Part shown: positions 3,965 to 62,156 of the stretch, piece after piece
How the letters are laid out: each line of letters begins with the position of its first letter
Position numbering within the stretch: position 1 is the stretch's first letter
Assembly (NCBI GenBank): GCA_015494395.1
Contig: WGBG01000180.1
Coordinates: 10,329-74,328, forward strand
Source: Deltaproteobacteria bacterium
GTDB lineage: Bacteria; Desulfobacterota; Dissulfuribacteria; Dissulfuribacterales; QOAL01
Length of the DNA: 64,000 nucleotides
Direction of reading: 5' to 3'
Made by a program: the position numbers and the translations under genes
The notes under the pieces: model-generated
What the model saw: only the letters and a program-made list of their open reading frames with translations
What the model was told of the DNA's origin: nothing
Database searches by the model: none

Positions 3965-5487
3965 GCCAGGAAGTTGTCAAGAGAATGTCCGCACTCGCAT
4001 ATCCATCCGGCCTGTCTTGCTGGATTACCATAGACAACGGCATGGTCCGGCACGTCTCTGGTTACCACTGCCCCGGCCCCTACAAACGCAAAGCGGCCAA
4101 TGGTGTTCCCACACACGATGGTGCTGTTTGCGCCAAGAGTGGCCCCGGTCCTTACTGTAGTCTTTCGTATCTCGTTCATGCGGCCGATGAATGCCCGCGG
4201 GTTATGCACATTGGTAAATACTACGCCAGGCCCGCAAAACACATGGTCTTCCAGGGTAACTCCCTGATAAACTGACACATTGTTCTGAATCTTACAGCCA
4301 TTGCCCACATTGACTTTTGGGCCAATGGCCACATTTTGACCAATTACACACCGGGCCCCTATCTTGGTATCTGGGAGGATATGGCTGAAATGCCATATCT
4401 TGGTTTCTGGCCCTATTTCTACATCTCCGTCAATGACCGCAGTGGGATGGACAAAGTATTTTTCTTTGCCTCTCTGGCCTTCTGGAGTGAATCGTACAGG
4501 GACTCCACCCTGGTCTAATGACCTTTGGCAGGCCTGCAGGACTTGCAGCACCCGCAGGCCTTCGTGTCCGTTGCTTACTGGTTCACATCTTTCTTTTATG
4601 CACTCAAGAAAATGTTCACACTCCATGCGCAGGGGTTCATAGGGTTTCAGCCTCACCGGTTCCGCCTCTTTTTTTGCCAGCACTGGATTTTCTCCTGCCC
4701 ATCCGATTTCATGGGAGTACAGGCATAGTTTGGTCTCCCAGGGCATGGAATCATCGAATACAGCCATTTTCTTGTCACCAATTACCACCAGTTTCTGTTC
4801 CTTGAATGGATGGAGCCAGGAGACAAAGATATGGGCCTTGAGGCCTGAGGGGAAATTGAGATGACTTGTGGTGACATCGGCTATCTTTTTGTGTAGGTAG
4901 TTTCCACCCACTGCAGATACCGACTCAGGGAATTCCTGTGCCATTGCCAGGATCATTGAGATGTCATGGGGGGCAAATGACCAGAGTATATTCTCTTCCC
5001 GCCTTATTTTACCCAGATTGAGTCTGTTGGAGTAAATATAGTTGATACGTCCAAGGTCGCCTTGTCTGATCAGGGTGCTCAGGGTTTTAAATGCCGGGTG
5101 GTAGTGCATTATATGTCCTATCATCAGGACCAGTTCGTTCTTACTGGCAAGCTCTATCAGCTCGTGTCCTTCCTCCTCGCACAGGACAAAGGGTTTTTCA
5201 ATGAATACGTGTTTTCCAGTCAGCAAGGCCTCTCTGGCGATTGCAAAGTGCGTCTCAGCCGGGGTTGCAATGACTATTCCGTCTATTTCCGGGTCCTGAT
5301 AGGCCTGGTGGGGTGAGGTGCACCATCTTATGCCTGGGTACCTCTGGGCAATGGCAGCAGAACGTTTGGGGTCTCGCTCACACACGAGCTTCAATGCTCC
5401 AAGCTTGTGAAAATTACGAACCAGGTTTTTCCCCCAGCATCCAGTTCCAATTATGGCTATGCCAGGCATGTTCTCTTTGATGTCCAT
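3907..5487 (-). CDS. fusion protein: Gfo/Idh/MocA oxidoreductase (WbpB-like) + left-handed beta-helix N-acetyltransferase (WbpD-like)
   Basis: The N-terminus has a Rossmann motif (IAIIGTGCWGKN). The C-terminal ~190 aa carry hexapeptide repeats (IGPETKIWHFSHI.., IGQNVAIGPKVNVGNGCKIQNN..) ending in a Cys-rich tail. Confidence 0.85.
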   Translation of the reverse strand: MDIKENMPGIAIIGTGCWGKNLVRNFHKLGALKLVCERDPKRSAAIAQRYPGIRWCTSPHQAYQDPEIDGIVIATPAETHFAIAREALLTGKHVFIEKPFVLCEEEGHELIELASKNELVLMIGHIMHYHPAFKTLSTLIRQGDLGRINYIYSNRLNLGKIRREENILWSFAPHDISMILAMAQEFPESVSAVGGNYLHKKIADVTTSHLNFPSGLKAHIFVSWLHPFKEQKLVVIGDKKMAVFDDSMPWETKLCLYSHEIGWAGENPVLAKKEAEPVRLKPYEPLRMECEHFLECIKERCEPVSNGHEGLRVLQVLQACQRSLDQGGVPVRFTPEGQRGKEKYFVHPTAVIDGDVEIGPETKIWHFSHILPDTKIGARCVIGQNVAIGPKVNVGNGCKIQNNVSVYQGVTLEDHVFCGPGVVFTNVHNPRAFIGRMNEIRKTTVRTGATLGANSTIVCGNTIGRFAFVGAGAVVTRDVPDHAVVYGNPARQAGWICECGHSLDNFLACQACGSSYALTPSGIDKL

Positions 5488-13451: not shown

Positions 13452-13603
13452 GGATTAATTATTGTTGGCTATATGAGGATTTTGATGGCAAGGGAGGTAC
13501 AGTAAGGCGGCAGTACCGTGAATTTTCAAAATTTGAGAATTCTAATTGCTGTAACTCCCTTTAATTTTAGCAAGAAAACCATGTTTTGAAACGCTGCTAC
13601 AGG
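13452..13603 (+). repeat. family B element, degenerate long-variant copy (B0), abutting the ATPase start codon
   Basis: Shares ttggctatatg..gg.., cagtaa..cggca, taactccctttaattt and gttttgaaacgct with the other B copies. The termini are degraded. Confidence 0.5.
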
Positions 13604-13612
13604 ATAAAGAAA

Positions 13613-13751
13613 CCTAGATTGAGCGATTGTCGGATATGCAGTAAATACGGCAATCCCGAAGGGTTTCAAAACTGGAAAGCTATAATTGACATAACTCCCT
13701 TTAATTTCATTGAAAAAACATTTTTTCAGATTTTGAAACGCTCAATCTAGG
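13613..13751 (+). mobile_element. family B MITE, short form (B1)
   Basis: Perfect 13-bp terminal inverted repeat CCTAGATTGAGCG / CGCTCAATCTAGG. Flanked by the 5-bp direct repeat AGAAA (13608..13612 and 13752..13756). Confidence 0.8.
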
Positions 13752-13782
13752 AGAAAGTTTTTTGATACGAATGCGTTTCAGG

Positions 13783-18353: not shown

Positions 18354-18577
18354 GTATCTATTCAGCGTGATAAATGGTCTTGTTTTGGAGTGACTATGAA
18401 GAATCTCGTAGTTTTTATTAGCGAAGCGTAGTCATAAAATCGCGTCTATACTGAGAGTGGAACCAGTGAGTTCCTCGATTTTGGCTTAAGCGAGCCCTGG
18501 AAAATAAGAAATTATTCACTTGAGTGGAAAAACAAGACCTCTTACCAACTTTCGTTATTTATATGCTGAACAATTAC
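18354..18577 (+). mobile_element. family A MITE, full length (A1)
   Basis: Ends are GTATCTATTCAGCG..GGTCTTGTTTT and AAAACAAGACC..GCTGAACAATTAC. Perfect 8-bp target duplication AGTAAATC (18346..18353 and 18578..18585). Confidence 0.85.
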
Positions 18578-18763
18578 AGTAAATCATGGTTAGCTTAACT
18601 GTGACATGATCAAGCGATCATTCATGTTCCCTTTAGATACGAGGTTTGGGGACAGTTCTATTTTTTATACTATCGGAAAATATACTGATGACTGAAATAA
18701 AAATAGCACGAACTAAAATTGATGAGGAAATGGAAGGTAGGGGTGAAGTAAGGTTAGTCTAGA

Positions 18764-28315: not shown

Positions 28316-29035
28316 TTATGGTTCCTCCCCGTCCAGACGAAACCTGTAGCCTACTCCTGAATGGGTGATGATCAGACGGGGGCTTGATGGGTTGTCTTCT
28401 ATCTTCTGGCGAAGCCTTCTTATGTGTACGTCAATTGCCCGGCTCCACGGGTAAACCTCCTTGTCTTTCCAGAGTCTGTTACACAACTCTTCACGTTTAA
28501 CTACCTTGTTACAGTTTTCTACAAGGGTCAGCAGCAGCTCGAACTCCTTACGGGTGAGATTCACATGCTCTCCCCTGGCAGTCACTGTCCTCTGTTCAGG
28601 ATAGATGGTTATGTCACCTGCCTTTATCACCTGTTCTGTACGGGTTGTCTTGTCCCTGCGCCTGATACACGCCTTTATGCGTGCTGCAAGTTCCAGGAAT
28701 TCAAAGGGCTTGGTCATGTAGTCGTCAGCCCCCAGGTCAAGCCCCCGTATCTTGTCAGCAAGGCTCTCCCGTGCACTGAGGATTATAATCGGGATGTCAG
28801 ACAGCTTCCTCAAATGCTGGCATATTATCAGGCCATCAATGTCTGGCAGGGTGAGATCAAGAATGACAAGGTCCGGCTTAAAACTATCAAAAGCCTCCAT
28901 AGCCTCCTTGCCGGTTGACACACCCTTTGCCTCATAACCGTCCAGTGCAAGCTGATCCACAAGGACCTTTTGAATGTCCTGATCGTCCTCAACCACAAGT
29001 ATTTTCATTCCTTCCCTAGGTTCTCCCTCAATCAT
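28316..29035 (-). CDS. OmpR-family response regulator
   Basis: Receiver domain (KILVVEDD..DLVILDLTLPD) plus a winged-helix output domain (GVGYRF). Start is ATG 29035 (GGGGGA 8 nt upstream) or ATG 29008. The 29134 extension is rejected. Confidence 0.9.
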   Translation of the reverse strand: MIEGEPREGMKILVVEDDQDIQKVLVDQLALDGYEAKGVSTGKEAMEAFDSFKPDLVILDLTLPDIDGLIICQHLRKLSDIPIIILSARESLADKIRGLDLGADDYMTKPFEFLELAARIKACIRRRDKTTRTEQVIKAGDITIYPEQRTVTARGEHVNLTRKEFELLLTLVENCNKVVKREELCNRLWKDKEVYPWSRAIDVHIRRLRQKIEDNPSSPRLIITHSGVGYRFRLDGEEP

Positions 29036-30700: not shown

Positions 30701-31050
30701 GTGGAAATAGCTCAAAGCTGAAAGCTCAAGGCTCAAAGTAAAAGAAGCCTATTTGCTTCCAGCTTCCGCTTTGGGTTAACTTTCATGTATCTATTCAGCG
30801 TGATAATTGGTCTTGTTTTGGAGTGACTTTGAAGAATTTCGTAGTTTTTCTTGGAGAAGCGCAGCCAGAAAATCGCGTCTGTCTGAGCGAGGCACGAGCG
30901 AGTTTCGCGATTTTGGCGTAGCGAGCCTTAGAAAAACAAGGAATTGTTCTCCGGAACGGAAAAACAAGACCAATTATCAACCTTATAATATCAATACGCT
31001 GAACAGTTACACTTTCATATCATGGGATGACAAACCCCATGTCATGAAAA
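30701..31050 (+). repeat. family C palindromic composite element (C1), interrupted by family A copy A2
   Basis: 30701..30786 matches the left ~90 bp of the intact copy at 49084..49205. 31011..31050 matches its right hairpin (..gatgacaaaccccatgtcatgaaa). Confidence 0.7.
30787..31010 (+). mobile_element. family A MITE, full length (A2)
   Basis: Canonical ends. Perfect 8-bp duplication ACTTTCAT (30779..30786 and 31011..31018), which is sequence belonging to family C. Confidence 0.9.
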
Positions 31051-31099
31051 TTTAGTATGAATTTGTGTAAGAAAACATTTTTAGAGTGTAAAAAACAAC

Positions 31100-31822
31100 A
31101 TGGCAGTGTTAAAGGCAGATGGCTTGGAAAAATCATACCGTGGCAGGCAGGTCGTAAAGGGGGTGAAGATTAAGATAAAAACCCGAGAGGTTGCAGGGCT
31201 CCTGGGCCCCAATGGAGCAGGCAAGACCACGGTATTTTATATGCTTGCCGGGATAATAAGGGCAGATGCAGGCAGTGTATCACTGAACGGAAAAGACATA
31301 ACAGCCCTGCCTCTTTCAGCCCGGGTTAAACATGGCCTGACCTACCTTCCCCAGGAGAGGTCTGTTTTTCAGGGACTCAGTGTGAAGAAGAATCTGTCTG
31401 CAGTCCTTGAGATGCTTGATATAAGCAAGGCTGAGATAGAAAGGAGAACTGAAAAGTATCTTGCCGAGTTTGATTTGGAACACGTGGAATCCTCTCTAGC
31501 GAGAGAGCTTTCAGGAGGTGAGGCAAGGCGGCTTGAGATTGCACGTGCCATTGCAGTTGAGCCTGATTTTTTGCTCATGGATGAGCCCTTTGCTGGGGTG
31601 GATCCAATGGCAGTCAGTATGATTCAGGACATAATCAGGAGGCTTAAAGGCCTTGGTATGGGGATTTTAATATCTGATCACAACGTAAAGGAAACACTCA
31701 AGGTCTGTGATCACGCGTTTATTATGAATGAAGGAGAAGTGCTGGTTTCAGGGGCTCCGGATGAGCTAGCAAAGAGTCCCGAGGCAAGGGCAGTTTATCT
31801 GGGGGAACGGTTCAGGCTGTAA
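31100..31822 (+). CDS. lptB: LPS export ABC transporter ATP-binding protein
   Basis: Walker A (GPNGAGKTT), signature LSGGEARRLEIARA, Walker B (FLLMDEPFAGVDP), and a length (240 aa) typical of LptB. Confidence 0.9.
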   Translation: MAVLKADGLEKSYRGRQVVKGVKIKIKTREVAGLLGPNGAGKTTVFYMLAGIIRADAGSVSLNGKDITALPLSARVKHGLTYLPQERSVFQGLSVKKNLSAVLEMLDISKAEIERRTEKYLAEFDLEHVESSLARELSGGEARRLEIARAIAVEPDFLLMDEPFAGVDPMAVSMIQDIIRRLKGLGMGILISDHNVKETLKVCDHAFIMNEGEVLVSGAPDELAKSPEARAVYLGERFRL

Positions 31823-31829
31823 AAAACAG

Positions 31830-31900
31830 GTATCTATGCACCGGGGCGGAAAAACAAGACCATTTACCAACCTTATAACACCCATACGCTGAACGGCTGC
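31830..31900 (+). mobile_element. family A MITE, internally deleted short form (A3)
   Basis: GTATCTA..ggcggAAAAACAAGACCATTTACCAACCTTATAA..ACGCTGAACGGCTGC. The flanks AAAAACAG / AAAAATAT match at 6 of 8. Confidence 0.6.
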
Positions 31901-39001: not shown

Positions 39002-39220
39002 GTAACTGTTCAGCGTACTTAAAAGGTTGGTAAATGCCCTTGTTTTCCGTTCCAGAGAACAATTTCTTGTTTTTCTAAGGCTTGCTTAAGCCAAAATCGC
39101 GAAACTCGCTCGTGCCTCCCTCAGACATACGCGATTTTATGGCTGCGCTTCGCCAAGAAAAACTACGAAATTGTTCAAAGTCACTCCAAAATAAGACCAT
39201 TTACCACGCAGAATAGATAC
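39002..39220 (-). mobile_element. family A MITE, full length (A4)
   Basis: Reverse orientation: GTAACTGTTCAGCG..GGTAAATGCCCTTGTTTT...AAAATAAGACCATTTACCACGCAGAATAGATAC. The flanking 8-mers match at only 5 of 8. Confidence 0.8.
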
Positions 39221-41200: not shown

Positions 41201-41249
41201 GGTTGTTTTAAGGATTCCTGCTTGTTGCTCAATTCGGGAAAAGTTTAAA

Positions 41250-41457
41250 CCTGGATTGAGCGATTGCCGGATTTGCTACAGATCCGCGAAAGGGGAATTC
41301 CCATAATAGTTGGCTATATGGGAATTCCCCTGACAAAGGAGATGCAGTAAATACGGCAATCCCGAAGGGTTTCAAAATTGGGAAGCTATTATTGACATAA
41401 CTCTTTTTAATATCGGTGAAAAAACAATTTTCCATATTTTGAAACGCTCAATCTAGG
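41250..41457 (+). mobile_element. family B MITE, long variant (B3)
   Basis: TIR is CCTGGATTGAGCG / CGCTCAATCTAGG. 5-bp duplication TTAAA (41245..41249 and 41458..41462). It carries ~70 extra bp, including the hairpin GGGGAATTCCCA-N15-TGGGAATTCCCC (41292..41330). Confidence 0.8.
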
Positions 41458-41468
41458 TTAAAAATGCC

Positions 41469-41547
41469 TTAACTGTTAAGCGTACTAATAATAAAGGTTG
41501 GTAAATGGTCTTGTTTTTACGCTCCGGTTACCACGCTGAATAGATAC
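41469..41547 (-). mobile_element. family A MITE, short hairpin form (A5)
   Basis: ttAACTGTTAAGCG..GGTAAATGGTCTTGTTTTT..CCACGCTGAATAGATAC. The 8-bp flanks AAAATGCC / AAAATACC match at 7 of 8. Confidence 0.7.
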
Positions 41548-41734: not shown

Positions 41735-42502
41735 TTGAAGGCAATAATATTAAGCGCAGGGCAGGGGAAACGCCTTTTGCCCATGACTGCTGACATGCCC
41801 AAGTGTATGCTTGATGTTGGCAGTGGTACTATTCTTGAGTGGCAGATCAATACGCTTCTTGGTATGGGCGTTAATGAAATAGTAATCGTCACCGGTTACG
41901 GGGCATCCAAGGTGGACAGGCTGATATCAGAAACCTATGCTGATAATGGAGTAAGGACTCTTTATAATCCTCATTATGCCACTTCTGACAACCTTGTGAG
42001 CTGCTGGTGGGCAAGCAGTGAGATGGATAAGGATTTCTTGCTGCTTAATGGAGACACGCTGTTTGAGCCTGCTGTGGCCAGTACCCTTATGAACTGTCCG
42101 CCTTCTTCAATAACCATGGCAATAAATGTCAAGGATAACTATGACAGCGATGACATGAAGGTTGTGGTTGATAAGGGGCGGCTTTTACATGTTGGCAAGC
42201 AGCTGCCGGTTGAAAGTGTTGACGGGGAATCAATTGGTTTTATCCGTTTTCTGGGAGAGGGGCCAGATATTTTCAAAAAGGCACTTGCCGAAGCTGTTGA
42301 GAACCCTTCGAGTAAAGGAAGATGGTACCTGTCTGTAATTGACAAGATTGCAGGAGAAATGCCAATAAGTACATGTCCAATCACCGGTTATTCATGGTGT
42401 GAAGTGGATTATCCTGAGGACCTTGATAATGCACGCAGGATGATTGCATCGCTTTCTGTTGCCAAAAAAACTGAGGGCAAGGGCATTTGCCAACCTTATT
42501 AA
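41735..42502 (+). CDS. NTP-transferase domain protein (LicC/IPCT-like cytidylyltransferase candidate)
   Basis: TTG start with GGAG 8 nt upstream. N-terminus is (M)KAIILSAGQGKRLLPMT. The last codons and the stop lie in a family A end fragment. Confidence 0.7.
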   Translation: MKAIILSAGQGKRLLPMTADMPKCMLDVGSGTILEWQINTLLGMGVNEIVIVTGYGASKVDRLISETYADNGVRTLYNPHYATSDNLVSCWWASSEMDKDFLLLNGDTLFEPAVASTLMNCPPSSITMAINVKDNYDSDDMKVVVDKGRLLHVGKQLPVESVDGESIGFIRFLGEGPDIFKKALAEAVENPSSKGRWYLSVIDKIAGEMPISTCPITGYSWCEVDYPEDLDNARRMIASLSVAKKTEGKGICQPY

Positions 42503-42524
42503 GGTGAATGCGCTTAACAGTTAC
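42478..42524 (+). repeat. solo right-end fragment of family A (A11)
   Basis: caagggcatttgccaaccttattaaggtgaatgcgcttaacagttac aligns to the right ends of A2, A3 and A5 (caagaccatttaccaacctt..acgct(g/t)aacagtta). Confidence 0.6.
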
Positions 42525-42681
42525 ATAATTTCTTCTTTATCAATGTTAGTACTTTTCCACGGTAATATTACCCTATCCTGACTTTAGACTTCGCCGGCTC
42601 AGCCTGATATCCGCTAAGCAAAAGACCGGCATCAGTCCGGCATTTTTTCTGAGTATTAGCCTGGCTGCCCATTATAGCGTT

Positions 42682-47936: not shown

Positions 47937-48106
47937 GCTCATCAGGTGTTTTATATATCTTCCTGCTTTTTAACAAAAAGACAGGATGATTTTGTTTGTC
48001 ACTGATTCTCTGTTCAGGTGCGGTGAAAAAATCCTTTCCTGTACCTCTGTGTTACACTAAGATTAATCATGGCCTTAATGTTTTATCAGCGTGCAGGAGG
48101 CGGCTT

Positions 48107-49081: not shown

Positions 49082-49083
49082 GC

Positions 49084-49205
49084 GTGAAAATAGCTCAAGG
49101 CTCAAAGTTGAAAGTCAAAGAAACCATGTTGGTTTTCAGCTTCCGACTTTGAGCTTTCAGATAACTTTCATGTCAGGGGGTGACAAACCCCATGTCATGA
49201 AAGTT
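49084..49205 (+). repeat. family C palindromic composite element, intact reference copy (C2)
   Basis: It contains two hairpin modules (gctcaaggctcaaagttgaaag..cttccgactttgagctttcag and tttcatgtcagggggtgacaaaccccatgtcatgaaa). It fills the gap between two convergent genes. Confidence 0.7.
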
Positions 49206-49215
49206 AAGGCAGGCA

Positions 49216-51284: not shown

Positions 51285-51432
51285 GTCTGCCTCCTGAGCG
51301 ATGGTTGTTTGTTAAAAAATATTAGGTTAACCTGCCTATATTTTCAGGTTCTTATACCATGTCCTGATTGCAAGCCTTAAATACGCTGTTTCCCCTCTAA
51401 ATGCAAGCTATTTTGTTTAGAAATGACACTGT

Positions 51433-51571
51433 CCTGAATTGAGCGTTTCAAAAGTTTGAAGAAATGATTTTATACGATATTAAAAGGACTTAAATTTATC
51501 ATACTCTTAAACTTTTGAAACCCTTCGGGATTGCCGGATCTGCAGCAAATCCGACAATCGCTAAATCCAGG
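51433..51571 (-). mobile_element. family B MITE, short form (B4)
   Basis: Reverse orientation with ends CCTGAATTGAGCG / CGCTAAATCCAGG. 5-bp duplication ACTGT (51428..51432 and 51572..51576). Confidence 0.8.
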
Positions 51572-52452: not shown

Positions 52453-52797
52453 ATGTCTGACTGTCTGTTTTGCAAGATGGTTTCAGGTGAGATCAAGCCT
52501 GATGTTGTTTATGAAGATGATGATGTCCTGGCATTTCGTGACATAAATCCCCAGGGGCCAACCCATGTGCTGGTTATTCCAAAGGAGCATATTGCCACCA
52601 TTAACGACCTTCAGGAGCATCATGCCGAACTTATGGGAAAGATCTATCTCACTGCTGCCAAGGTCGCAGCACAGGAGGGTATTGCAGAAAAAGGCTACCG
52701 CACGGTTATGAACTGCAACAGGGATGGAGGCCAGGAGGTGTATCATATCCACCTTCACGTAATTGGCGGCAGGGGCATGACCTGGCCTCCAGGCTAA
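52453..52797 (+). CDS. HIT-family (histidine triad) nucleotide-binding protein
   Basis: 114 aa with the HIHLHVIGG triad. GGAGG RBS. Confidence 0.9.
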   Translation: MSDCLFCKMVSGEIKPDVVYEDDDVLAFRDINPQGPTHVLVIPKEHIATINDLQEHHAELMGKIYLTAAKVAAQEGIAEKGYRTVMNCNRDGGQEVYHIHLHVIGGRGMTWPPG

Positions 52798-53022
52798 ACT
52801 TTCGTGGTAGGGGCGCTGTCACTCCCCTGATATGAAAGTTAGCTCTAAGCTCAAAGTCGGAAGCTGAAAGCAGACAGGGTTTTTTTTGTAACTGTTCAGC
52901 GCATTTATTCAACGAGGTTGGTAAATGGTCTTGTTTTTCCGTTCCCAGGACCATTTACCACGCTATATAGATACGTTTTTTTACTTTGAGCCTTGAGCTT
53001 TCAGCTTTGAGCTATTTTAGGA
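52797..53022 (-). repeat. family C palindromic composite element (C3), interrupted by family A short copy A6
   Basis: 52797..52887 and 52975..53022 together align to the reverse complement of C2. The element begins at the HIT stop codon. Confidence 0.7.
52888..52974 (-). mobile_element. family A MITE, short hairpin form (A6)
   Basis: GTAACTGTTCAGCG..GGTAAATGGTCTTGTTTTTCCGTTCCCAGGACCATTTACCACGCTATATAGATAC. It is flanked by G+T-run repeats (gtttttttt / gttttttt), consistent with an 8-bp duplication. Confidence 0.75.
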
Positions 53023-53036
53023 TAAAAAATTCAGGC

Positions 53037-53849
53037 ATGTCAGCAGAGATAAAAATCTATCAGCGGCGTTTCGGTGCATACGTCAGGAACTATTTATCAG
53101 GATTGATACCGCCTGAACTTCGGGGTATGGCCGCTTTGAAAGTTGTCCATACCCAGAGGGTAAGGGCTGAGATGAAGCGGCTGGGGGGGCGAATAGGCCT
53201 TGATAAAAGGCCGCTTTTCCTTGCAGAGCTTGCAGGGCTCTTTCATGACATTGGCAGGTTTGAACAGCTCAGGCGTTTTGGCACCTTTGAAGACGCCCGT
53301 TCTGTGGATCATGCAGCCTTCAGTGCGGAAGTATGTCTTGAAAACAGCTTCTTGAAAGAGCTTGCAGGTGGTGAGTGCCGGCTTGTGATAACTGCCATTC
53401 GCAGGCACAACATGAAGACAGTGCCACCTGCTTCAAGCTTTCTTGAGAGCACTTTGACCATGCTGCTCAGGGATGCTGACAAGCTTGATATATGGCGGGT
53501 GTTTAATGACCATTACTGCAGGCAGGGCAGGGAATCGGAACAGGACGATTCTGTTCTTGTGCTTGGACGCCCTGACACCCCGGGTATATCTCCGCAGGTT
53601 GCCGCAGATATCATGGCAGGCCGCATCGTTGACATTGCCAGTGTGAAGAATCGGAATGATTTTGCCCTGGCAAGGCTTGCATGGGTGTTTGATATCAACT
53701 TTGTGCCAACCCTTGAGGAGATGAGCAGACGTGGGTATGTCCAGTCGTTAAGGGATTCTCTGCCTGAATTTGATGAAAAGGATCAGCTTTTTCAAAGGGT
53801 GGGGCAGTACATTGATGACATGATTGCCACCAAAACCCCTGCGTGTTAA
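53037..53849 (+). CDS. HD-domain phosphohydrolase
   Basis: HD motif in LAGLFHDIGRFEQ. ATG 53037 is preferred because the TTG 52986 extension lies inside repeat C3. Confidence 0.7.
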   Translation: MSAEIKIYQRRFGAYVRNYLSGLIPPELRGMAALKVVHTQRVRAEMKRLGGRIGLDKRPLFLAELAGLFHDIGRFEQLRRFGTFEDARSVDHAAFSAEVCLENSFLKELAGGECRLVITAIRRHNMKTVPPASSFLESTLTMLLRDADKLDIWRVFNDHYCRQGRESEQDDSVLVLGRPDTPGISPQVAADIMAGRIVDIASVKNRNDFALARLAWVFDINFVPTLEEMSRRGYVQSLRDSLPEFDEKDQLFQRVGQYIDDMIATKTPAC

Positions 53850-53900: not shown

Positions 53901-55331
53901 ATGAACTATGAAGCTGTTATAGGTCTTGAGGTGCATGTCCAGCTCAAGACCAGTAGCAAGATATTCTGTTCCTGTGTAAACAAATTCGGGTCTTCACCCA
54001 ATACCCAGACCTGTCCTGTATGTCTTGGCATGCCTGGTGTGCTTCCGGTGCTTAACCGCAGGGTGGTTGAGTATGCCCTGAGGATGGGCATGGCCACAAA
54101 CTGCAAGATTCCAAAATACAGTCAGCTTGCAAGAAAGCACTACTTCTATCCTGATCTTCCAAAGGGCTATCAGATTTCACAGTATGAACTTCCCCTGGTT
54201 GAACACGGCTGGGTTGATATAGATGTTGAGGGCAAGACCAGGCGTATTGGGATTACGAGGATTCATATTGAAGATGATGCAGGCAAACTTGTTCATGATG
54301 AGTCACGGCCTGTAAGTTACGTTGATCTTAACAGGACAGGGACCCCTCTTATAGAGATAGTAAGTGAGCCGGACATAAGAAGCCCTGAGGAGGCTGCTGC
54401 CTATGTAAGGAAGATACGGCAGCTTGTGCGTTATCTGGGAATCAGTGACGGCAACATGGAGGAGGGAAGCCTCAGGTGTGATGCAAATATCTCCCTTCGT
54501 CCAGAGGGGCAGAAAGAGTTTGGCACCAAGTCCGAGTTAAAGAACATGAACTCCTTCAGGAACGTGCAGAAGGCACTTGAATATGAAATCAGGCGTCAGA
54601 CTGCGCTGCTGCTTGACGGGCAGGAGATAGTGCAGGAGACCAGACTCTGGGATGCCGGTAAAGGTGTTACCCACTCCATGAGAGGCAAGGAGGAGGCACA
54701 CGACTACCGCTACTTCCCGGATCCTGATCTTGTCCCCATTGAGATAAGTGACCAGTGGATGGAGGAGATAAGGGCAGATTTGCCCGAGCTTCCTGATGAG
54801 AAGCGCAGGCGCTTTATGGAACAGTACGGGCTTCCTGAATACGATGCCTCGGTTCTGACGGTTTCAAGGGAGACAGGGGATTATTTTGAAGAGGCGGTAA
54901 GGCTCTTTGATAATCCAAAAAGCGTGTCAAACTGGATAATGGTGGAGCTCATGAAGCTACTTAAACAGACCGATGTCTCCATTGAACAGTGCAATGTTAC
55001 CCCGGCATATCTGGCTGAGATACTAGCCCTTGTGGACAAGGGGACAATCAGTGCGCAGATGGGCAAGGAGGTGTTGCAGGACTGTTTCGGGACCGGCAAG
55101 TCCCCTGCGTCAATAGTTGAGGAAAAGGGGCTTTCCCAGGTCAGTGACGAGTCAGAGCTTGAGGCAGTTGTTGCAAAGGTGATGGAGGCAAATCCCAAGG
55201 AAGTTGAGCTGTACCGTGGTGGCAAGAAAAAGGTTCTTAGTTTCCTCATGGGACAGGTTATGAGGGAGACGAGGGGCAAGGCAAATCCCAAAAAGGTGAA
55301 TGAGATTTTCAGAAAAATGCTTGAGGGATAA
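53901..55331 (+). CDS. gatB: Asp-tRNA(Asn)/Glu-tRNA(Gln) amidotransferase subunit B
   Basis: [15 protein letters not shown].., [15 protein letters not shown], and a full-length 476 aa. Confidence 0.95.
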
Positions 55332-55332
55332 T

Positions 55333-55552
55333 TATACAGCGTATTAACAGTAATGAGGGTTCGTAAATGGTCTTGTTTTTCCGTTCCGGAGAACAATTTC
55401 TTGTTTTTCTAAGGCTTGCTTAAGCCAAAATCGCGAAACTCGCTCGTGCCTCGCTCAGACAGACGCGATTTTATGGCTCCGCTTCGCCAAGAAAAACTAC
55501 GAAATTCTTCAGAGTCACTCCAAAACAAGACCATTTACTGTGCTGATCATTC
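55333..55552 (-). mobile_element. family A MITE, full length with degraded outer ends (A7)
   Basis: It starts 1-2 nt after the gatB stop. The interior is near-identical to A4 and A9. The outer repeats diverge (atacagcgt.., ..tgtgctgatcattc). Confidence 0.75.
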
Positions 55553-57596: not shown

Positions 57597-57823
57597 ATAT
57601 CTATTAAGCGTGGTAAATGGTCTTGTTTTGGAGTGACTTTGAACAATTTCGTAGTTTTTCTTGGCGAAGCGAAGCCACAAAAATCGCGTCTGTTTGAGCG
57701 AGGCACGAGCGAGTTTCGCGATTTTGGCGTAGTAAGCCTTAGAAAAACAAGAAATTGTTCACCGGAACGGAAAAACAAGGCCATTTTCCAACCTTTATTC
57801 ACATCAGTACGCTGAATAGTGAC
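57597..57823 (+). mobile_element. family A MITE, full length (A8)
   Basis: ataTCTATTAAGCGTGGTAAATGGTCTTGTTTT...AAAACAAGGCCATTTTCCAACC..ACGCTGAATAGTGAC. No clear flanking duplication. Confidence 0.8.
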
Positions 57824-57846: not shown

Positions 57847-58869
57847 TTGCTTAAAGGTTTACGGAAAGTTTTCAGAAAAAATCTGGGCATCGACCTGGGT
57901 ACTGCCAATACCCTTATCTATCTTGAGGATGTGGGGATTGTGTTTAACGAGCCTACTGCAGTTGCAAGGTCTGATGCTGGAAAACTGCTTGCTGTTGGAA
58001 GTCAGGCGTGCAGTTATCTTGGGCGGACCCCTGAGGGCATTGAGGCATTAAGGCCAATGGCCCGCGGTGTTATCAGTGATTATGATGCTGTATCCTCCTT
58101 TCTTCATGCCATACTTGATGAGGTAAGAGACAGGCAGGCGCTGTTATCACCGGATGTTGTGGTGTGTGTGCCCTCCAACATAACCCGGACTGAGCAGAGG
58201 ACTGTCCTTGAGGCAGTCATGGAGGCTGATGTCCACAGGGCATGGCTCATGGAGGAGGTTATGGCAGCAGCAGTTGGTGCAGGTGTTGCAGGCCCTGATG
58301 AGCCGCCGGCAATGGTGCTTGACATGGGCGGTGGGACTTCAGAGGCTGCAATAATAAGTGACATGGCATATCTCGCCTGTGAGACCCTGCGTGTTGCAGG
58401 TGATGATATGAATGAACAGGTGGCCCGGTACATGAAGCGGCAAAGGGGGCTTGTCATGAGTATTTCCGGTGCTGAAAAGCTTAAATGGGATGCCGGATGC
58501 GTGCCCGGCTGGAAAGGCGGCCCGCTTACTGCCCAGGCAGGAGGAAAGGATATTGTGACCGGTCTTCCCACTACCTGTGAAGTTACCTCAACCGAGCTTG
58601 CCCCTGTGTTTGAAGAGATAGTGGAAAATATCGTTGATCTTGTGAAGGAAGTTATGCGCCAGGTTGATGTTGAAGTGTTGCATCATGTGGTCTCAAAGGG
58701 TGCCCTGCTTACCGGAGGAGGTTCCATGCTGCGGGGCCTGGCATCGTATCTTTCAGCTCGTTGCGGTATCAGGTTCCATCCTGCAGAAAACCCTCTTGAA
58801 ACGGTTATAGCCGGAGCAGGAACTGTGGTTCAGGATATTCCTGCGTGGCGTTCCGTATTTGTAAATTAA
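57847..58869 (+). CDS. mreB: MreB/Mbl-family actin-like protein
   Basis: GIDLGTANTLIY, LRPMARGVISDYD and DMGGGTSEAA. TTG start with GAGGA 4 nt upstream. No mreCD follows. Confidence 0.8.
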   Translation: MLKGLRKVFRKNLGIDLGTANTLIYLEDVGIVFNEPTAVARSDAGKLLAVGSQACSYLGRTPEGIEALRPMARGVISDYDAVSSFLHAILDEVRDRQALLSPDVVVCVPSNITRTEQRTVLEAVMEADVHRAWLMEEVMAAAVGAGVAGPDEPPAMVLDMGGGTSEAAIISDMAYLACETLRVAGDDMNEQVARYMKRQRGLVMSISGAEKLKWDAGCVPGWKGGPLTAQAGGKDIVTGLPTTCEVTSTELAPVFEEIVENIVDLVKEVMRQVDVEVLHHVVSKGALLTGGGSMLRGLASYLSARCGIRFHPAENPLETVIAGAGTVVQDIPAWRSVFVN

Positions 58870-59087
58870 AAACTATTCAGCGTGGTAAATGGTCTTGTTT
58901 TTCCGTTCCGATGAACAATTTCTTGTTTTTCTAAGGCTTGCTCCACCAAAATCGCGAAACTCGCTCGGGCCTCGCTCAGACAGACGCGATTTTTTTTGGC
59001 TCCGCTTCGCCAAGAAAAACTACGAAATTATTCAAAGTCACTCCAAAACAAGACCATTTACCAACTTTAATTCAAGGCGATAGTGGA
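58870..59087. mobile_element. family A MITE, chimeric copy with core inverted relative to its ends (A9)
   Basis: The left end is the spacer-less type (CTATTCAGCGTGGTAAATGG). The right end is the spacer type (CCATTTACCAACTTTAATTC..). The interior reads in the orientation seen in the minus-strand copies. Confidence 0.7.
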
Positions 59088-61949: not shown

Positions 61950-61958
61950 GCACTGCTT

Positions 61959-62156
61959 GTAACTGTTCATCGGGCTTATGTTAATAAAGGTTGGTAAATG
62001 GTCTTGTTTTTCTAAGGCTTGCTACGCCAAAATCGCAAAACTCGCTGGTCCCTTGCTCAGACAGACGCGATTTTTGTGGCTGCGCTTCGCCAAAAAAACT
62101 ACGAAATTGTTCAAAGTCACTCCAAAACAAGACCATTTACCACGCTGAATAGATAC
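61959..62156 (-). mobile_element. family A MITE (A10), with ~28-bp internal deletion
   Basis: Canonical ends. Perfect 8-bp duplication CACTGCTT (61951..61958 and 62157..62164). It lacks ccgttccggagaacaatttcttgttttt, a segment bounded by the direct repeat cttgttttt in other copies. Confidence 0.9.

Follow-up and report, generated by a model that had tools for sequence, protein, structure and literature searches.

An internally deleted MITE nested within a two-hairpin repeat in an intergenic spacer of an uncultured deltaproteobacterial lineage

Bacterial MITEs that derive from DDE insertion sequences include the Correia elements of Neisseria, RUP of Streptococcus pneumoniae, Nezha of cyanobacteria, Chunjie of Geobacter, and MITEAba12. 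REP/BIME elements are mobilised by RAYT transposases, palindrome-associated elements are found in the IS200/IS605 family, and members of the IS66 family have ends that start GTAA and produce 8-bp duplications. In plants, nested MITEs of maize and rice were reportedly used by Jiang and Wessler (Plant Cell, 2001) to infer target preference. We describe here a nested pair of repeats in a 64,000-nt stretch of DNA (the window) from an organism labelled Deltaproteobacteria in public records, in which a short copy of one repeat family (A6, of family A) interrupts a copy of another (family C) between two housekeeping genes, a HIT-family gene and an HD-domain gene. The term MITE is used throughout in its general sense, as given in PMC5896051 and PMC6382973.

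Family A, including A6, resembles the bacterial MITEs in being short and non-coding, in having terminal and subterminal inverted repeats together with a fixed 8-bp duplication, in its many dispersed intergenic copies, in its presence or absence between close relatives, and in giving rise to internally deleted derivatives. It differs from the named MITEs in its very high density and in having no sequence similarity in Rfam, plasmids, or viral contigs. Family A may also resemble IS66, in that its right end starts GTAACTGTTCAGCG, its left end starts GTA(T/A)CTATTCAGCG, and its duplication is 8 bp long, but an IS66-type transposase bounded by such ends was not found. Our search of the literature for IS66 end sequences returned nothing usable, and the possible relation of family A to IS66 is a lead only. 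Family C appears to resemble REP/BIME and IS200/IS605 elements in being a small palindromic hairpin structure that lacks terminal inverted repeats and a clear duplication, in filling tiny intergenic gaps, and in a presence that varies between lineages. Unlike them, however, it is a unit of about 128 nt with two hairpins, the first of which has arms made of 7-nt tandem units, its copy number is modest, no conserved tetranucleotide flanks it at the two sites for which an empty allele is available, and neither a RAYT nor a TnpA gene was seen. The nest itself is like the nested MITEs of plants in that the interrupted element doubles as an internal empty site from which both the duplication and the target can be read. 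It differs from the plant case in lying within a bacterial genome that has little non-coding DNA, where the frequency of nesting would reflect a shortage of space rather than preference.

The gap between the HIT-family and HD-domain genes is 240 nt long in the window and consists of three pieces, C, A6, and C, whereas the HD-domain gene of a sister lineage starts 10 nt past the HIT stop codon. The features of this locus, together with the two other C copies in the window, are as follows.

30701..31056, + strand: nest 1, a C element cut by a full-length A (30787-31010), identified by BLAST, comparison of ends and duplications, and an empty-site allele
49083..49210, + strand: intact family C copy, used as reference, which occupies the space separating two convergent genes and has no counterpart in the sister lineage
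52453..52797, + strand: HIT-family gene (context), from the ORF list and Pfam HIT/DcpS_C in the gene tables
52794..52840, - strand: family C hairpin 2, from nhmmer match, fold, and alignment
52844..52879, - strand: family C hairpin 1, right arm and proximal half of the loop, from BLAST, nhmmer, and alignment
52880..52887: left copy of the 8-bp target-site duplication of A6, T8 in the window
52888..52974, - strand: A6, an internally deleted family A MITE of 87 nt, from BLAST, ends and duplication, and fold
52975..52982: right copy of the target-site duplication of A6, GTTTTTTT
52983..53022, - strand: family C hairpin 1, left arm and left end AAATAGC, from BLAST, nhmmer, and alignment
53037..53849, + strand: HD-domain gene (context), from gene tables and sequences

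The junction sequence of the 87-nt short form is GGTAAATGGTC joined to CTGGGAACGG, a further junction is AAAAAAAC joined to GTATCTATATAGCG, and the excised allele reconstructed in silico at this locus contains CAGACAGGGTTTTTTTACTTTGAGCC.

Both outer pieces of the spacer match the intact C copy at 49083-49210 in BLAST comparisons, with 80.6% identity over 93 nt for 52794-52886 (E=3e-19) and 81.6% over 38 nt for 52981-53018 (E=5e-4), and both are in reverse orientation. Searches with nhmmer gave E-values of 2.5e-26 (model positions 40-132) and 8.5e-09 (positions 2-46), again on the minus strand, although these two values are partly circular because the four copies from which the C profile was built include the excised copy (Cn2) itself, and the BLAST values therefore constitute the independent evidence. 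The initial annotation, made from the letters of the window, was right to read 52797-52887 and 52975-53022 as the reverse complement of a C element split by A6, and the flanks that it described, T8 at 52880-52887 and GTTTTTTT at 52975-52982, are indeed present. The TAA stop codon of the HIT-family gene adjoins the end of the C element. Hairpin 2, a palindrome of ~43 nt, is degenerate at this locus, with pairing on the + strand kept via G-U pairs. The right arm of hairpin 1 is made of the 7-nt units TTTCAGC, TTCCGAC, and TTTGAGC, and pairs with 52985-53017 in the predicted fold; the left arm carries the units GCTCAAA, GCTGAAA, and GCTCAAG. As a whole, the composite folds as a hairpin inside a hairpin, with a predicted energy of -84.3 kcal/mol (z=-6.7).

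Two other readings of this spacer were discarded. Chance resemblance of the pieces to C is rejected by the E-values and by the restoration of C on excision (see below), and an intrinsic terminator is rejected because no T run follows a stem, the scan having returned no terminator-like sites within 52797-53036. Rfam gave 0 matches over the whole window at gathering scores, and only chance-level matches for the two nests at permissive thresholds (E of 0.19-0.78).

Although it is much reduced, A6 keeps 58 nt of the right end and 26 nt of the left end of family A, and its remaining 15-nt arms make a hairpin. Its right end is 84.7% identical to family A over 59 nt (E=1.6e-13), and its left end is 86-90% identical over 26-29 nt. 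Both termini are present (GTAACTGTTCAGCG...GCTATATAGATAC), the left one with two changes relative to the family consensus, and the terminal inverted repeats, GTAACTGTTCAGCG and the reverse complement of GTATCTATATAGC, match at 9/13 positions. The duplication flanking A6 is 7/8 in the window (T8 versus GT7), with one T extra on the left. In the REYS20-1 assembly (L088), however, T7 is found on the left with G at 52879, giving an 8/8 duplication of GTTTTTTT and GTTTTTTT, and the mismatch in the window is therefore a homopolymer slip. Two further assemblies of the strain, L102 and L104, probably also carry T7, and hence a perfect duplication, as they share the nhmmer score of L088 rather than that of the window. 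The insertion lies in the apical loop of C hairpin 1, which is rich in A. Excision in silico of A6 with one 8-nt duplication, which the initial annotation had proposed as a check, leaves a collinear C element that aligns over its whole length with A-free C copies, among them the orthologue of nest 1, with no gap at the junction; the loop reads AAAGTAAAAAAACCCTGTCTGC after excision and AAAGTAAAAGAAACCATGTTTGC in the A-free C. Taken together, the C homology, the A termini, the duplication, and the outcome of the excision bear out the nested insertion of an A derivative into C.

Assemblies suited to comparison were found by exact-protein look-up and fall into two groups. The same-strain group is 99.9% identical to the window (WFZQ01000130.1, REYS20-1, JALUCQ01, and JALUIT01), and the sister-lineage group is 91-97% identical (JOHN19-1, JBPMXD01, JBPNIL01, and Logan contigs). 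At nest 1, A was inserted at the base of C hairpin 2 and is flanked by the duplication ACTTTCAT at 30779-30786 and 31011-31018, whereas in the ~95%-identical sister lineage (L115, L116, and L117) C is intact and ACTTTCAT is present as a single copy. The intact C with its single ACTTTCAT is direct proof that A entered an existing C element at nest 1. The nest at the HIT-HD spacer is independent of this one, as the initial annotation had held, given that the position within C and the duplication both differ. At the HIT-HD spacer, an allele with C alone was not found: the sister lineage, with a 10-nt spacer (GGCTAATATTTCAGGCATG), lacks both elements, and every same-strain assembly has both. The sister contigs L115 and L117 both carry ~85-95 nt more than the window at about window position 28316, and a 107-aa HNH-domain ORF is called there in L115 (7026-7349) but not in L117. 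The nearest homologue of LptB (window 31100-31822) beyond its 90% cluster is only 67% identical, implying that the organism belongs to a poorly sampled lineage, with public records labelled Deltaproteobacteria. Our search for literature on the accession numbers found nothing.

Family A is a MITE by every feature that can be tested, with inverted repeats, a fixed 8-bp duplication, empty sites, and small, non-coding, multicopy elements. A full copy is ~225 nt long, with 16-nt terminal inverted repeats of 88% complementarity (GTATCTATTCAGCG and GTAACTGTTCAGCG; 14-16 nt in the family) and 48-nt subterminal repeats, so that the whole element is one long imperfect palindrome. Copies range from 45 to 228 nt and are non-coding. 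The window holds about 10 A loci, or about one copy per 6 kb: seven near full-length copies (18354-18578, 30787-31010, 39002-39220, 55329-55546, 57598-57823, 58858-59075, and 61958-62156), two short forms (41469-41547 and A6, 52888-52974), and two solo right-end fragments (31822-31894 and 42478-42525). The first of these fragments begins right after the LptB stop codon, and is present in L115 and absent in L117. A scan with the A core over one genome per species gave, among the matches listed, mostly chance 18-mers except for one MAG, JALWJV01 ("Deltaproteobacteria bacterium M17"), a related MAG rich in A copies with 38 loci in 174 kb. All well-preserved copies are flanked by 8-bp target-site duplications, including those of JALWJV01; 25 were collected, many of which are 8/8, as exemplified by AGTAAATC, ACTTTCAT, and AAGCAGTG.

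The mobility of family A, also put forward in the initial annotation, is confirmed by empty-site alleles. The sister lineage lacks A at 39002-39220 and 41469-41547, and carries a private full copy, flanked by the duplication ACATTAGG, near window position 48055 (L100/L103), while the copies at 57598 and 58858 are common to the window and the sister lineage. These lineage-specific differences in presence indicate that A has been moving since the two lineages split. No transposase was identified in the window from Pfam searches of ten large ORFs between 100 and 16300 and from the gene tables, and none flanked by A ends was present in the fetched loci, in which unpaired A ends proved to be contig-end truncations, N gaps, or nested repeats only, so that no autonomous A was seen. 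A full A copy had no BLAST match among plasmids, and the A and C cores gave chance matches only, or none, in viral contigs. The chemistry of A transposition and the type of transposase can be suggested only provisionally, being read from the duplication and inverted repeats alone.

Nesting is general among these repeats: one A lies inside another in L032, a B lies inside an A in L081, and A and B are neighbours at window 41247-41547 and in L003 and L078. In the case of self-nesting (L032, 5254-5560 of JALWJV010000096.1), a full A lies within the end of another A with the duplication AAATGGTC. Family B is a third MITE of about 205 nt, with ends CCTRGATTGAGCG...CGCTCAATCYAGG and 5-bp duplications (TTAAA, TTGAA, and TCGTA). 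Its copies were observed in the window (13458-13763, 41247-41462, and 51421-51571) and in L081 (5640-5850), L089/L091 (near 4204-4271), and L115 (16738-16946); its presence varies between the two lineages, and one B copy is nested in an A copy. Several public contigs end in or beside A copies (window about 30860 and 30982; L113, L114, and WFZQ01000130.1).

The window contains exactly three C copies on the basis of a profile search, and two of these carry A, at different positions. The element is about 128-131 nt long and consists of two adjacent hairpins (predicted fold of -54.1 kcal/mol, z=-8.0), the arms of hairpin 1 being runs of 7-nt units (GCTCAAA, GCTGAAA, and GCTCAAG) and hairpin 2 being a 43-nt palindrome. 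C lacks terminal inverted repeats. The three copies (49083-49210, 30701-31056, and 52794-53022) differ by whole arm units, giving 7- and 8-nt gaps in the alignment, and these differences in unit number suggest slippage in the hairpin 1 arms. Two C loci within 4 kb differ in C presence between the lineages, and neither locus shows a clean duplication: at the first site the sister sequence CATTAA-CA-GCAGGC corresponds to CATTAA-[127 nt]-GCAGGC in the window, and at the HIT-HD site, which also holds A6, GGCTAA-TAT-TTCAGG corresponds to GGCTAA-[232 nt]-TTCAGG, with CA and TAT replaced. The C left end abuts a TAA stop codon at one of these sites, and the right end does so at the other. The C core matched three loci in a metagenome scan, one being a palindrome like C hairpin 1 in a kinase gene and the other two being chance matches. 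The former (L108, 336-403 of LGOV01139531.1) falls within an ORF for a 299-aa histidine kinase, which reads through it in frame (...LKSSKIEAQRKSGSFQLSASDFEL...), and recalls the palindromic elements of Rickettsia. It is conceivable, albeit improbable in our judgement, that C represents an undescribed kind of small mobile element, having two hairpins, neither inverted termini nor duplication, and expandable 7-nt units, that would insert as a single strand, in a hairpin-dependent manner, into intergenic gaps of a few bases. Hairpin-dependent movement of the REP or IS200/IS605 type is a guess.

We consider that the 240-nt HIT-HD spacer very probably consists of two non-coding mobile repeats, with a shortened A nested in C through crowding and not through affinity. 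In the sequence of events that we infer, the order of which is taken from the structure, a C element of ~131 nt would have come to lie in reverse orientation where the sister lineage has its 10-nt spacer. An A copy, mobilised in trans by a transposase that cuts with an 8-bp stagger, would then have integrated into the A-rich apical loop of C hairpin 1 at this place, duplicating GTTTTTTT. The centre of the long A palindrome would have been lost to leave 87 nt, most likely by palindrome-stimulated deletion (replication slippage) at this site or already in the donor copy. The nesting would have arisen from the build-up of repeats in scarce non-coding DNA, where such insertions are presumed harmless, with no affinity of A for C.

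The last step may be set against the target preference for C, or for AT-rich structured sites, that the initial annotation had entertained. Two of the three C copies in the window have been struck, and in L087 a third A, flanked by the duplication CCTTAAAT, is found at the left end of a C arm; the 25 duplications of A are also AT-rich (33% GC versus 40% for intergenic DNA) and show a weak AA....T pattern without a strict consensus. It nevertheless seems very improbable that A genuinely favours C elements or AT-rich hairpin DNA and that this accounts for the two hits in three C copies. A loci touching a C-profile match number 2/10 in the window and 1/38 in JALWJV01, or 3/48 in total, whereas, of the non-coding DNA outside A, C makes up 394 of about 3,300-5,800 nt for the window, the range reflecting different definitions of intergenic DNA, and 456 of about 14,200 nt for JALWJV01, so that 1.4-2.4 insertions are expected; the excess is not significant (binomial and Poisson P about 0.15-0.3) in this sample of about 240 kb with a crude definition of intergenic DNA. 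Moreover, the three insertions are at three different positions in C, A also lands within A and beside B, and the pre-insertion sites rebuilt for 19 copies are no more structured than random intergenic windows (mean MFE of -15.0 versus -18.0 kcal/mol for 400 such windows; one-sided p=0.97) and only slightly more AT-rich. On this limited sample, then, A insertions in C are no commoner than the available intergenic space would give, which the initial annotation had named as the finding that would speak against preference, and its alternative of safe-haven accumulation is favoured. Crowding of repeats in scarce harmless non-coding DNA is the simplest reading of the nesting.

The history of A6 and of its host element admits other versions of the earlier steps. 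The initial annotation had left it open whether the short form of A is itself mobile or was deleted after insertion, and we regard arrival of A already as the 87-nt form, short hairpin derivatives with both termini having been mobilised, as a serious possibility that falls short of being probable. None of the short copies (45, 69, 79, 84, 87, and 123 nt) has lost a terminus or its duplication, A6 with its intact duplication included, and 3/6 of the lineage-specific insertions are short (41469-41547, A6, and a 45-nt copy in L115/L117), a proportion that slow deletion in place does not predict and that fits either mobile short forms or deletion at insertion. On the other hand, the breakpoints differ among all short forms, with no deletion junction shared in about 50 copies and hence nothing pointing to a short master copy, and the left terminus of A6 carries its two changes from the consensus. 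Furthermore, the A at 55329-55546, 218 nt long in the window, is without its central 123 nt in every sister-lineage contig, at an unchanged site (L100, 12703-12708; L101; L103; L105); this difference in a single orthologous copy, long here and short in the sister lineage, establishes that internal deletion in place occurs, as a long palindrome would lead one to expect. The deletion half of the earlier claim is thus documented for at least this copy, while mobility of the short forms is best described as quite possible.

Other versions concern the arrival of C. Entry of A6 into a C element elsewhere in the genome, followed by movement of the C::A6 composite as one unit into the HIT-HD spacer, would explain why the sister lineage lacks both repeats and why no intermediate allele was found, and it accords with the variable presence of C at two sites within 4 kb; as no second C::A6 copy exists in the window or in any fetched locus, however, we consider such a transfer decidedly unlikely. 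The perfect duplication of A6 in most assemblies suggests a recent event, although it is compatible with movement of the composite as well. It is also unlikely, though somewhat less so, that C was ancestral at the HIT-HD spacer and was lost by the sister lineage, in which case the copy here would be a decaying relic and not a recent arrival. In keeping with this history, the copy is about 15-20% diverged from the other C copies, far above the ~5% that separates the lineages, its hairpin 2 is degenerate, and the comparison, of one lineage with the other, is unrooted, no outgroup that would polarise gain versus loss of C having been found (the next LptB relative is 67% identical). Ancestral presence would, however, need the near-exact loss of about 230 nt and about 127 nt at two loci, leaving spacers of 10 nt and 9 nt with the flanking genes intact in every sister sub-lineage, and in this unrooted comparison loss of C at two loci in the sister lineage is less likely than gain here. 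Arrival of C in this lineage, followed by insertion of A into its loop, remains our preferred account.

The nested insertion is real but ordinary, being the work of a new MITE family in an uncultured lineage, and the only part of these results that might open a new question is how family C moves. Were C a novel kind of mobile element, the nested A copies would be natural markers with which to date and trace C copies. For annotation, the composite explains how 10 nt between two genes of a likely operon became a 240-nt spacer that forms a very stable hairpin (-84 kcal/mol), and A copies fragment the metagenome assemblies of this organism. The locus is also a worked example of a seeming nesting preference that vanishes once the scarcity of non-coding DNA is counted. 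For transposon biology, family A adds a MITE family of very high density and recent activity, for which natural populations of an uncultured deltaproteobacterial lineage offer clean empty sites.
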